Shown here: piece by piece, positions 54,699 through 55,974 of the stretch
Layout: each line of letters begins with the position of its first letter
How positions within the stretch are numbered: the first letter of the stretch is position 1
Assembly (NCBI RefSeq): GCF_016026235.1
Contig: NZ_CP065613.1
Length of the DNA stretch: 64,000 nt
Reading direction: 5' to 3' (one strand)
From: Escherichia coli
GTDB taxonomy: Bacteria; Pseudomonadota; Gammaproteobacteria; Enterobacterales; Enterobacteriaceae
Notes under the pieces: generated by a model
The model's input: the letters and a program-made list of their open reading frames with translations, nothing else
Told to the model about the DNA's origin: nothing
The model's database searches: none
Translations under genes and position numbers: made by a program

Positions 54699-54742
54699 GC
54701 TCCAGTCCTTTTCTTCTGGGCCGACTTTCCGGGAGGTGCTTA

Positions 54743-54780
54743 AACGAAAAACCCCGCCCGGTTTGCGCCGGCGGGGTTTT
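54743..54780 (-). terminator. ilvB attenuator terminator
   Basis: Minus-strand AAAACCCCGCCGGCGCAAACCGGGCGGGGUUUUUCGUUU hairpin plus U-run between the ivbL leader and ilvB. Confidence 0.6.
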
Positions 54781-54803
54781 GGAATCGTGTGTTGTTCCAG
54801 TCC

Positions 54804-54902
54804 CTACGGCGCATTGCCGACGACCACCACCACACGCACGACGACCACTGCGGCGGATGGCGCAGTTGGTAGTAGTTTTGCGTTGAACATGGAAGTAGTC
54901 AT
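54804..54902 (-). CDS. ivbL: ilvB operon leader peptide
   Basis: Hand-translated 32-aa ORF MTTSMLNAKLLPTAPSAAVVVVRVVVVVGNAP with Val/Leu-rich regulatory codons. Confidence 0.85.
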   Translation of the reverse strand: MTTSMFNAKLLPTAPSAAVVVVRVVVVVGNAP

Positions 54903-55028
54903 TGGGGACCTTGTTGGTTTTGTGTTTAACAATATTTATACAAGCACAGCTTTACAGGGGAGACAATGGAAAATTTTTCAGCAAGGGAAAATTGAGGGGT
55001 TGATCACGTTTTGCACTGAATTGCAGGT

Positions 55029-55170
55029 AACAAAAAACCCCGCCGGAGCGAGGTTTCGTCAGCCGCCTGCGGCTGGTAACCGCAAAGCACACTGTATTAT
55101 GTCAACACTGAAAGTATACCTGTTCCGCGCAGAACGCGCAATTTCGGCACGAATTTTGACGTATTTAGTA
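55029..55170 (-). ncRNA. istR: IstR small RNA (antitoxin RNA of the tisB type I toxin system); boundaries approximate
   Basis: Minus-strand terminator at 55029-55058; the segment GCACACTGTATTATGTCAACA (55087-55107) is a near-identical direct repeat of 55345-55365 in the tisB leader, as needed for a divergently encoded RNA to pair with tisB mRNA. Confidence 0.45.
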
Positions 55171-55212
55171 CATAGTTGAGTATCGATCACAGTTTGCGTT
55201 TTGTCCAAAAAT

Positions 55213-55232
55213 TACTGTTTATTTATACAGTA
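55213..55232. promoter_or_regulatory. LexA operator controlling the tisAB/istR-2 promoters
   Basis: TACTGTTTATTTATACAGTA fits CTGT-N8-ACAG, with a TATAAT -10 box immediately downstream (55241-55246). Confidence 0.6.
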
Positions 55233-55466
55233 AACTTCTATAATATCACTGTACGCAATGTGTTATGCGGGGGCCGCATCGTTACCCGGCGCACTAAGTC
55301 CTGGCTGAAACGGGTGGTGCCGTCAGCGCCTTAACCCCGCGTGAGCACACTGTGTTATGTCAACAAGCACAACGTTTCTCCTTGAGATACCGCGTGCACA
55401 ACAGCTGGCAACAGGCAGCGGAAAGGTACGTCAGCTGGCAGTGCTCCTGAACCACAGGAGACGCGT

Positions 55467-55556
55467 ATGAGCCTGGTGGATATCGCCATTCTTATCCTCA
55501 AACTCATTGTTGCAGCACTGCAACTGCTTGATGCTGTTCTGAAATACCTGAAGTAA
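55467..55556 (+). CDS. tisB: type I toxin TisB (SOS-induced membrane peptide)
   Basis: Hand-translated 29-aa ORF MSLVDIAILILKLIVAALQLLDAVLKYLK. Confidence 0.85.
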   Translation: MSLVDIAILILKLIVAALQLLDAVLKYLK

Positions 55557-55575
55557 TTCAGATTCAAGTCGCACC

Positions 55576-55604
55576 AAAGGGGAGCGGGTAACCGCTCCCC
55601 TTTT
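55576..55604 (+). terminator. tisB rho-independent terminator
   Basis: AAAGGGGAGCGG-GTAA-CCGCTCCCCTTTT hairpin directly after the tisB stop. Confidence 0.5.
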
Positions 55605-55974
55605 ATATTTAGCGTGCGGGTTGGAGTTGGGGGCTTCTTCTACCAGCAGAATGTTTGCACCTGCGCTGCCTGTGCCCCTCACCCTAGCCCTCTCCCCAAA
55701 GGGGCGAGGGGACCGTCCCGTGCAATGTTTAGCTCATTTTCTGAAAGGGAACGGTGGTTTCCCCCTCGCCCTTTCAGGGAGAGGGTTACAGTTCGCACGT
55801 AATCCCTTCCGGCAACATTTATTGCCGCTTTTGTTTACATATTCTGCCGTTTTGCTTTTCGCCATTCCCGGCACATATCTGGCTAACATTCATCAATGTG
55901 ATAGATTCCTCTCCCGCATTTATGGGAATGCGTAGTGACTTATTCTAATTATTTTTATAAAAGCATCCGTGATA

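Follow-up and report, generated by a model that had tools for sequence, protein, structure and literature searches.

The stretch of Escherichia coli DNA analyzed here (64 kb, hereafter the window) carries, with a probability of about 0.96, a complete and functional-looking copy of the chromosomal tisB/istR-1 type I toxin-antitoxin locus of the species. We find the gene order ilvB-ivbL-istR-tisB-emrD, as in K-12, with all parts of the locus in place and intact. A 651-bp query (54990–55640) is 100% identical to strain FDAARGOS_943, for which RefSeq annotates tisB (WP_000060506.1). The toxin gene tisB (55467–55556, plus strand) encodes a 29-residue membrane toxin, MSLVDIAILILKLIVAALQLLDAVLKYLK, in its Ser2 allelic form, and matches the Pfam family TisB_toxin (PF13939; E = 2.1e-9, 37.6 bits, with a cut-off of 25). 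It is preceded by the Shine-Dalgarno sequence AGGAGA (55457–55462, plus strand; PMC11264685, Table 1), which is predicted to be sequestered in structure: in our folds, the mean unpaired probability of the Shine-Dalgarno/AUG region is ∼0.2 in each of the +1, +42, and +106 forms of the mRNA. Inverted-repeat and terminator scans locate an intrinsic terminator downstream of the gene (55576–55609, plus strand), which consists of a perfect 12-bp stem (55576–55587/55592–55603), a GTAA loop, and a T-rich tail. The 29-codon ORF and the terminator that an earlier note had read from this sequence are thus both present.

On the opposite strand, the Rfam family istR (RF01400, gathering score 45) matches positions 55032–55161 over its full length (1–130 of 130; 144.8 bits, E = 2.8e-31). 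The antitoxin small RNA IstR-1 is placed at 55032–55106 (minus strand, about 75 nt) by transferring its K-12 ends by alignment; the RefSeq annotation of K-12 IstR-1 maps to 55032–55104, and a length of 75 nt with 21 nt of complementarity has been reported (PMC4147584). The longer IstR-2 (55032–55171, minus strand, 140 nt; from K-12 3853118..3853257) includes all of IstR-1. It is SOS-induced and was described as being under LexA control without repressing tisB (PMC2826370, PMC11264685). The terminator scan identifies the core stem-loop of the IstR terminator, equivalent to the final helix in the Rfam model, at 55037–55049 (minus strand), with a U-tract at 55036–55032. By analogy with K-12, we take the active antitoxin to be the short, constitutive IstR-1, expressed from a LexA-independent promoter located inside istR-2. 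The earlier note had placed a minus-strand small RNA at 55029–55170; istR is indeed found there, but this span is that of IstR-2 and not that of the antitoxin. The 5′ end of IstR-1 and the tisAB start are separated by a 144-bp gap, and istR is divergent from tisB without overlap. Matches to the Rfam families STnc310, P6, and mir-1275 were below their gathering scores, lie on GC-rich hairpins, and were rejected.

A perfect LexA operator, the inverted repeat TACTGTTTATTTATACAGTA of the form TACTGT-N8-ACAGTA, is located at 55213–55232. It is the only match to this pattern in 64 kb, even when one mismatch is allowed (the chance expectation is 0.03), and a CTG-N10-CAG box is found at the equivalent site in 33 of 33 related loci among the matches listed. 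The operator lies at −38 to −19 from the inferred tisAB start and overlaps the −35/spacer region of the tisAB promoter, whose −10 hexamer TATAAT (55239–55244, plus strand; cross-genus identity 0.91) was read from the sequence and is given in PMC11264685, Table 1. By analogy, the tisAB promoter should be LexA-controlled and hence SOS-inducible. Relative to the istR-2 start the operator is positioned at −42 to −61, 5′ of the −35 hexamer and without overlap with the istR-2 promoter core. A promoter scan places the istR-2 promoter at 55179–55207 (minus strand; −35 TGGACA at 55207–55202 and −10 GATACT at 55184–55179, separated by a 17-nt spacer), and the constitutive istR-1 promoter maps to 55113–55141 (minus strand; −35 TTGCGC at 55141–55136, −10 TATACT at 55118–55113, again with a 17-nt spacer). 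Both sets of hexamers appear in Table 1 of PMC11264685. The istR-1 hexamers have cross-genus identities of 0.95 (−10) and 0.92 (−35) in the loci among the matches listed. The two istR promoters are predicted to be separate, with hexamers equal to those of K-12. The operator had earlier been described as lying between divergent promoters; this holds, except that the flanking promoters are those of tisAB and istR-2 and not that of the antitoxin IstR-1.

Comparison with E. coli K-12

The tisB/istR-1 locus of K-12 MG1655 (b4618/b4616) was reportedly described by Vogel and colleagues in 2004 and by Darfeuille and colleagues in 2007. An alignment to this region, which the earlier note had proposed as a check, shows eight differences up to position 55625 (at 55014, 55027, 55063 in the IstR hairpin, 55120, 55170, 55210, 55471, and 55589). 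Past about 55625 the two strains diverge, owing to a dispersed repeat of ∼170 bp that takes the place of the REP element found 3′ of tisB in K-12. None of the eight differences maps to the repeat copies described below, the 20-bp LexA box, the promoter hexamers, the Shine-Dalgarno sequence, or the block between +42 and the IstR-1 target. The two strains share the LexA 20-mer, the hexamers of all three promoters, the Shine-Dalgarno sequence, the +42-to-target block, both repeat copies including their A/G difference, and 28 of 29 TisB residues. The change at 55589 converts the terminator loop from GAAA in K-12 to GTAA, and the change at 55471 replaces Asn2 of K-12 TisB by Ser. Ser2 is the majority E. 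coli TisB allele (85%) and is reportedly slightly more toxic than the Asn2 form at low induction; toxicity and its suppression by IstR-1 have been demonstrated for both K-12 TisB and the Ser2 variant (PMC11264685).

We positioned the tisAB primary transcript at 55251–55609 (plus strand) by combining the published length of 359 nt (PMC2577331) with the locations of the terminator and the −10 hexamer, which would set its start at about 55251, to within 1–2 nt. With the same tolerance, the processing site that generates the +42 form would be at about 55292 and the RNase III site that generates the +106 form at about 55356 (both plus strand; forms as defined in PMC6690012). The 5′ structured element of the +42 mRNA, which lies upstream of the ribosome standby site (PMC6690012), would correspond to 55292–55343 (plus strand). 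This element is among the best conserved non-coding blocks of the locus (identity 0.91 across 32 other Enterobacteriaceae loci in the matches listed). The mean unpaired probability of the standby site rises from 0.38 in the +1 form to 0.47 in the +42 form, so the folds reproduce the reported opening only weakly.

The direct repeat and the IstR-1/tisB duplex

A repeat search identified a 22-nt direct repeat (55086–55107 and 55344–55365, 21 of 22 positions identical) whose copies are 258 bp apart on the same strand. No further copy with up to three mismatches was found in the window, where none is expected by chance. In 200 shuffles of the surrounding 800-bp region the best 22-mer direct match averaged 15.3 identities and never exceeded 19, compared with the 21 observed. 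The 21-bp repeat reported previously at 55087–55107 and 55345–55365 (20/21 identical) is present within this 22-nt repeat, but its register has to be adjusted. We take the meaningful register to be 21 bp at 55086–55106/55344–55364, one base to the left, because the pair 55086/55344 is invariant across genera, whereas 55107/55365 is often unpaired (in 9 of 18 distinct sequences among the matches listed) and probably falls outside IstR-1, past its 5′ end. In this register, copy 1 (55086–55106) is transcribed from the minus strand as the 5′ 21 nt of IstR-1, the antisense segment GUUGACAUAAUACAGUGUGCU. Copy 2 (55344–55364, plus strand), AGCACACUGUGUUAUGUCAAC, lies in the tisB leader and represents both the standby site for ribosomes and the target of IstR-1.

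The single difference between the copies (A55096/G55354) yields a U·G wobble, and the RNA duplex is therefore unbroken over 21 bp. It contains 20 Watson-Crick pairs and one G·U pair (−33.5 kcal/mol), and its center is located 113 nt upstream of the tisB AUG. The earlier note had suggested predicting the pairing of IstR with the tisB mRNA; in our co-fold the IstR-1 5′ end pairs with 55343–55364, with a net gain of −26.6 kcal/mol. RNAduplex applied to the full-length RNAs ignores intramolecular structure, and we used the co-fold and the 21-mer duplex instead; its value of −73.5 kcal/mol (shuffles, −53.8) reflects an over-extended interaction and was set aside. The arrangement conforms to that described for IstR-1/tisB, with about 21 nt of complementarity in the 5′ UTR about 100 nt 5′ of the tisB ribosome binding site. 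By analogy with K-12, the IstR-1 target would thus be a standby site about 113 nt upstream of the start codon rather than the ribosome binding site itself.

Conservation and covariation in Enterobacteriaceae

Related loci were sought with a DNA pattern built on the istR 3′ hairpin and terminator, outside the pairing segment. This returned at least 120 pattern loci, about 85 of them chance matches in GC-rich genomes, which we filtered out by keeping only loci with a LexA box and the repeat next to them. At least 33 Enterobacteriaceae loci were retained, a sample outside which other Escherichia species and most Salmonella lie. Both repeat copies recur 236–257 bp apart in 33 of these loci among the matches listed. 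The 29-residue TisB ORF, extracted via the alignment, is intact in 32 of 33, and most of the 33 aligned loci keep the GGAG core of the Shine-Dalgarno sequence (GGGAG in two), again among the matches listed. Across genera, conservation in the listed matches peaks on exactly those elements that have been defined by experiment.

The duplex itself is maintained in these loci. Among the matches listed, 95.5% of the duplex cells are paired, compared with 17–47% when the register is slid. Two compensatory double changes were found in the matches listed, from U-A to C-G in 5 and from C-G to U-A in 6 of 18 distinct sequences, and the covariation score was equaled in none of 500 shuffles. One pair shows an A·C mismatch in 7 of 18 distinct non-E. 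coli sequences among those listed. The co-variation of the two copies lends support to the pairing, although covariation between short repeats could in principle reflect homogenization at the DNA level. Together with published work (PMC4147584, PMC6690012), it bears out the antisense logic proposed earlier, in which a same-strand repeat and an istR gene on the opposite strand yield complementary RNAs. Equal counts of variant E. coli near both copies had also hinted at covariation within the species; this was rejected, as the changes lie outside the 21-bp duplex in the two strains sampled.

The A at 55096 distinguishes Escherichia. Every other genus among the matches listed has a G-C pair at this position, and the U·G wobble costs about 1.9 kcal/mol. 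It is conceivable, but in our view unlikely, that the weaker duplex in Escherichia is not neutral but adaptively tunes the threshold of TisB expression and, through it, how often persisters form.

Alternative explanations

The IstR-1 target also contains the ATG (55357–55359) of a 37-codon ORF, tisA (55357–55470, plus strand). The tisA stop codon overlaps the tisB AUG, and the ORF is kept in >99% of E. coli loci (PMC11264685), as might be expected if tisA were a real leader ORF coupled to tisB in the manner of hok/mok/sok, with IstR-1 covering its start codon. We consider such coupling highly improbable. Among the matches listed, the start codon is ATG in 12 but ACG in 21 of 33 loci (ACG being the native form in Enterobacter and Kosakonia), the length of the ORF varies erratically from 19 to at least 50 codons, and nowhere is the locus less conserved than in the tisA body (55366–55400). 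A Pfam search with the tisA product returned no match, and tisA has been reported to be untranslated (PMC2826370). The ATG is lost through a T/C change at one of the two duplex positions that covary, which argues for selection on pairing and not on the codon. In E. coli, Salmonella, and Citrobacter, the tisA ORF appears to exist by accident, as a side effect of this covarying pair being in its U-A state, and tisA represents neither a conserved gene nor a conserved, translated leader ORF with its start codon as the antisense target, as in hok/sok.

Alternatively, the repeat could be a duplicated site acting at the DNA level, either a protein binding site or a duplication remnant under gene conversion, with the RNA complementarity being incidental. 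Only 258 bp separate the two direct-repeat copies on their common strand, a weaker collinear similarity is found nearby (D7, 55052–55063 versus 55316–55327), and covariation of repeat copies by itself does not separate DNA-level from RNA-level constraint. We regard this explanation as extremely improbable, given that both copies lie inside opposite-sense transcripts mapped from K-12, in agreement with the earlier expectation that the repeat is transcribed, and that copy 1 is found exactly at the IstR-1 5′ end. Many one-sided differences produce G·U pairs and preserve pairing rather than DNA identity; among the matches listed, 10 distinct sequences have G-C and 8 have G-U at pair 2-49, to give one example. 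In addition, the +106 RNase III site falls inside the duplex, at its center, in the geometry of the 359-nt transcript, and direct experiments showed that IstR-1 keeps 30S and S1 from binding to the target (PMC6690012). A further possibility is that the long, SOS-induced IstR-2 (55032–55171) is the effective antitoxin. The entire pairing segment lies within it, the LexA-flanked intergenic region is common to it and tisAB, and an unexpected persister phenotype was seen upon deletion of the istR-2 promoter (PMC2826370). This too seems very improbable: IstR-2 does not repress tisB translation (PMC11264685), and in IstR-2 the pairing segment is internal, with its ends within two helices of the Rfam consensus structure. 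The IstR-2-specific part is also poorly conserved (cross-genus identity 0.58 in the matches listed, compared with 0.88 for the pairing segment and 0.92–0.95 for the istR-1 promoter hexamers).

Discussion

Our analysis favors antisense control of tisB by IstR-1, as established in K-12, and no observation made here speaks against it. Because the functional elements are conserved base for base, we transfer the K-12 mechanism to this strain (PMC6690012, PMC4147584, PMC2826370, PMC11264685); the transcript ends, processing, standby loading, RNase III cleavage, and toxicity are drawn from that literature. In unstressed cells, LexA bound at 55213–55232 would keep the toxin mRNA scarce. DNA damage would remove LexA and allow synthesis of the 359-nt tisAB RNA from about 55251. 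This primary +1 RNA would be translationally inert until processing to +42 (about 55292) exposes the single-stranded standby site at 55344–55364, where the 30S subunit may load via protein S1 and slide ∼100 nt to the sequestered tisB Shine-Dalgarno/AUG. Sequestration of the ribosome binding site, +42-dependent translation, and standby loading have been demonstrated experimentally in K-12 (PMC6690012). IstR-1, made constitutively from the opposite strand, would pair with copy 2 through its first 21 nt, the reverse complement of copy 1. The resulting 21-bp duplex with its one U·G wobble would stop standby loading, and RNase III cleavage at about +106 would leave an untranslatable RNA. TisB would then be made only when SOS-driven tisAB transcription exceeds the fixed pool of IstR-1, and may depolarize the inner membrane, leading to dormancy and persistence.

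The hok/sok system of plasmid R1 likewise combines an RNA antitoxin, a toxin mRNA activated by processing, and RNase III cleavage of the duplex. Sok, however, is cis-encoded, overlaps the toxin transcript, and acts via the translated leader ORF mok, whereas in tisB/istR the small RNA gene is separate (with the 144-bp gap) and tisA, the leader ORF, lacks conservation. The dinQ/agrB, zorO/orzO, and shoB/ohsC systems resemble tisB/istR more broadly, in that a small hydrophobic toxin is paired with a divergent small RNA, a short complementarity targets the long toxin 5′ UTR and not the ribosome binding site, and translation requires prior processing of the mRNA (PMC4147584). They belong to other toxin and small RNA families; the locus described here specifically matches Pfam TisB_toxin and Rfam istR.

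The tisB/istR system is already known, as the earlier note had stated, and its identification here is correct but ordinary: synteny and all parts are those of K-12. The locus is missing from about one-fifth of complete E. coli genomes, and the value of our findings is mainly one of annotation. The cross-genus comparison modestly strengthens, on independent grounds, both the published register of IstR-1/tisB pairing and the case against tisA being a gene. The strain possesses an intact copy of a locus with a role in the formation of SOS-induced, antibiotic-tolerant persisters.

Results

The tisB/istR locus comprises a tisB ORF on the plus strand (55467..55556; from our reading of 54700-55900 and the small-ORF list), which encodes MSLVDIAILILKLIVAALQLLDAVLKYLK and matches the Pfam family TisB_toxin (PF13939; E=2.1e-9, 37.6 bits, cut-off 25). 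It is followed by a terminator (55576-55603, plus strand) formed by a 12-bp perfect hairpin and a T-rich tail, so that both elements claimed in the earlier note are present. Of 33 related loci (among the matches listed), 32 retain the whole 29-codon ORF. TisB of Enterobacter sp. EA-1 ends in ...AVLEIPAV and not ...AVLKxxR*, which suggests a frameshift in this genome or an alignment artefact. TisB residue 2 is Ser in the window and Asn in K-12 (difference at 55471). Ser2 occurs in 85% of E. coli, and among laboratory strains Asn2 is restricted to the K-12 lineage (PMC11264685); across the cross-genus set the residue is always S or G, never N (among the matches listed). Ser2 is no peculiarity of the window's strain.

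The perfect LexA operator described previously is confirmed at 55213-55232 (TACTGTTTATTTATACAGTA). Nowhere else in the 64-kb window are the LexA consensus arms matched, even at one mismatch (0.03 expected by chance), and a CTG-N10-CAG box of the LexA type occupies the same place in 33/33 loci (among the matches listed). In E. coli O157:H7 strain 3384 the box ends in ACAGCA vs ACAGTA (equivalent of 55231). The operator spans -38..-19 of the tisAB promoter. Relative to istR-2 its position is -42..-61, with 5 bp between it and the -35 hexamer downstream and with no core-promoter overlap, and simple promoter occlusion therefore fails to explain the reported LexA control of IstR-2.

The minus strand contains an end-to-end match to Rfam istR (RF01400) at 55032-55161 (144.8 bits, gathering score 45). 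K-12 annotation carried over by alignment places the 3' end of IstR at 55032, the IstR-2 5' end at 55171, and the IstR-1 5' end at 55104 (RefSeq, 73 nt) or 55106 (75 nt, original description). The span 55029-55170 given earlier for a minus-strand sRNA corresponds to IstR-2, and the antitoxin is IstR-1. The promoter hexamers catalogued for istR-1, istR-2 and tisAB (PMC11264685) are all found in the window: TTGCGC (-35, 55141..55136) and TATACT (-10, 55118..55113) for istR-1 and TGGACA (-35, 55207..55202) and GATACT (-10, 55184..55179) for istR-2, the latter pair also from a promoter scan and all on the minus strand, and TATAAT (-10, 55239-55244, plus strand) for tisAB. Because full-length tisAB RNA is 359 nt long (PMC2577331) and the terminator T-tract ends near 55609, the tisAB start (+1) is placed at about 55251, with which the -10 position concurs. 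Counted from there, the +42 processing site would fall at about 55292, and RNase III would cut (+106) at about 55356, midway through the second repeat copy.

A repeat search returned a direct repeat at 55086-55107 and 55344-55365 (21/22 identical). With up to three mismatches allowed, the window contains two copies of the 21-mer and no more, where none is expected, and among 200 shuffled versions of the 800-bp region the best 22-mer match averaged 15.3 identities (maximum 19). Transcription of istR runs along the minus strand, so IstR-1 begins with the reverse complement of copy 1, and this segment pairs with copy 2 in the tisB leader, which is transcribed from the plus strand. The antisense match expected from a same-strand repeat is thus correct, and the duplex is unbroken over 21 bp: the lone difference between the copies, A at 55096 vs G at 55354, places a U opposite a G. 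The repeat noted earlier is consequently real, its register shifted one base to the left, and its 20/21 mismatch is a wobble. The duplex amounts to -33.5 kcal/mol, or -35.4 kcal/mol with G-C in place of the wobble, which costs ∼1.9 kcal/mol. Co-folding IstR-1 with the +42 mRNA, a pairing prediction called for in the earlier note, puts IstR nucleotides 1-22 on 55343-55364 in copy 2 (net gain -26.6 kcal/mol). According to the K-12 literature (PMC6690012), the IstR-1 target is the standby site, not the ribosome binding site. The tisB Shine-Dalgarno and AUG are predicted to be mostly paired in every mRNA form (probability unpaired ∼0.2), and this predicted occlusion fits the published requirement for a standby site at a distance. 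Processing is predicted to open the target modestly (0.38 to 0.47); that it opens rests on the literature, not on the folds computed here.

We scanned one genome per species with a pattern built on the 3' hairpin and terminator of IstR, an anchor placed outside the pairing segment on purpose; the scan gave many chance matches, in GC-rich genomes. At least 35 loci of Enterobacteriaceae, representing 12 or more genera, came out of it, and 33 of them were long enough for analysis. In 33/33 loci (among the matches listed) the segment adjoining the anchor recurs on the same strand 236-257 bp away. When these loci were reduced to 18 distinct sequences (among the matches listed), 95.5% of duplex cells were paired, vs 17-47% with the register slid by 1-3 columns. 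Compensatory double changes are found, among the matches listed, at pair 55353/55095 (U-A to C-G, 5/18) and at pair 55358/55100 (C-G to U-A, 6/18), and none of 500 shuffles reached the observed covariation score. Pair 1 (55344/55086) is invariant, and half of the sequences (among the matches listed) fail to pair at position 22 (55365/55107), which defines the conserved duplex as 21 bp, 55086-55106/55344-55364. Among the matches listed, the A at 55096 is seen in Escherichia sequences only, the other 16 distinct sequences having G-C. Seven of the 18, all non-E. coli, carry a target C opposite an IstR A (equivalent of 55102/55360; among the matches listed). Kosakonia, Phytobacter, Superficieibacter, Siccibacter and some Enterobacter tolerate this A·C mismatch, which is located five pairs in from the 5' end of IstR-1. 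The four E. coli strains compared share one and the same duplex, wobble included, and the polymorphisms of two variant strains sampled fall just beyond it (55068, 55109, 55365). O157:H7 strain 3384 has G for A directly 3' of the 21-bp target (55365 equivalent).

Conservation, taken as identity to the window across the 32 other loci (among the matches listed), is 0.93 in the target, 0.91 in the block from +42 to the target (55292-55343), 0.88 in the IstR pairing segment, 0.95 and 0.92 in the istR-1 -10 and -35, 0.91 in the tisAB -10, 0.88 from Shine-Dalgarno to AUG, 0.85 in the LexA box and 0.84 in the tisB ORF. It drops to 0.58 in the IstR-2-specific part and is lowest (0.51) in 55365-55453; nearly no conservation is seen at 55366-55400, directly 3' of the target (32 other loci listed). 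The tisA ORF (55357..55470, plus strand, 37 codons) has its ATG inside the IstR-1 target, and the T of this codon belongs to one of the two pairs that covary. Among the matches listed, the start codon is ATG in 12/33 loci, confined to Escherichia, Salmonella and most Citrobacter, and ACG in 21/33. Counted from this codon, the frame varies in length between 19 codons and 50 or more (33 loci listed), and a Pfam search with tisA returned no match. The ACG starts, erratic length, poorly conserved body and missing Pfam match support the published view that tisA is untranslated (PMC2826370), and the ORF itself appears to be a by-product of the duplex sequence. A hok/mok-like coupling via tisA is argued against by the ACG codons, the body and the Pfam result alike.

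E. coli FDAARGOS_943 matches a 651-bp locus query (54990-55640) with 100% identity. Among 5,426 complete genomes of E. coli, 4,358 carry the locus, chromosomal in all, and 1,068 (∼20%) have no match, which agrees with the published 15% absent and 3% interrupted (PMC11264685). Partial or interrupted matches occur in some genomes (for example H24 and H25). K-12 shares the gene order ilvB-ivbL-istR-tisB-emrD, and alignment to it reveals eight differences up to 55625: 55014 and 55027 (past the istR 3' end, ivbL side), 55063 (IstR hairpin), 55120 (IstR-2-specific part), 55170 (IstR-2 position +2), 55210 (3 bp away from the LexA 20-mer), 55471 (TisB Asn2 to Ser) and 55589 (tisB terminator loop). None affects the repeat copies, operator, promoter hexamers, Shine-Dalgarno or the leader from +42 to the target, and the known K-12 system is thus intact here, as had been stated.

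Past 55625 the divergence from K-12 is due to a dispersed repeat. The tisB-emrD gap, ∼140 bp longer than that of K-12, holds an unannotated GC-rich element of ∼170 bp with internal palindromes (55625-55805), in place of the single REP element of K-12; this GC-rich element recurs on the chromosomes of 3,993/5,426 E. coli genomes (median 3, maximum 8 places per genome). On the minus strand, the ilvBN leader peptide ivbL (54807-54905) is intact (Pfam IlvB_leader, E=2.2e-21), with Phe at residue 6 where K-12 has Leu. A GC-rich hairpin at ∼54745-54780, with sub-threshold Rfam matches only, is probably the ilvBN attenuator terminator, read on the minus strand. A small minus-strand ORF (55819-55896) is the counterpart of K-12 ysdE (24 aa), retained with a diverged middle (MNVSQICAGNGEKQNGRICKQKRQ in the window vs MNVSQIYARNGELFSGRICKQKRQ in K-12).

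Discussion

The locus is a textbook system, already annotated in an identical RefSeq genome, and contains nothing new. Our analysis confirms the original observation and supports the antisense interpretation, with four refinements: IstR-1 as the antitoxin, the wobble, the register and the standby site. Because every functional element is identical in sequence to K-12, the mechanism described there (PMC6690012, PMC4147584, PMC2826370) should be transferable. tisAB would be repressed by LexA, and SOS induction would give the inert +1 RNA, in which +42 processing would expose the standby site. Constitutive IstR-1 would pair there, blocking 30S/S1 loading and leading to RNase III cleavage into the inert +106 RNA. 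TisB would be made only once tisAB transcripts exceed IstR-1, and would then depolarise the membrane and favour persistence.
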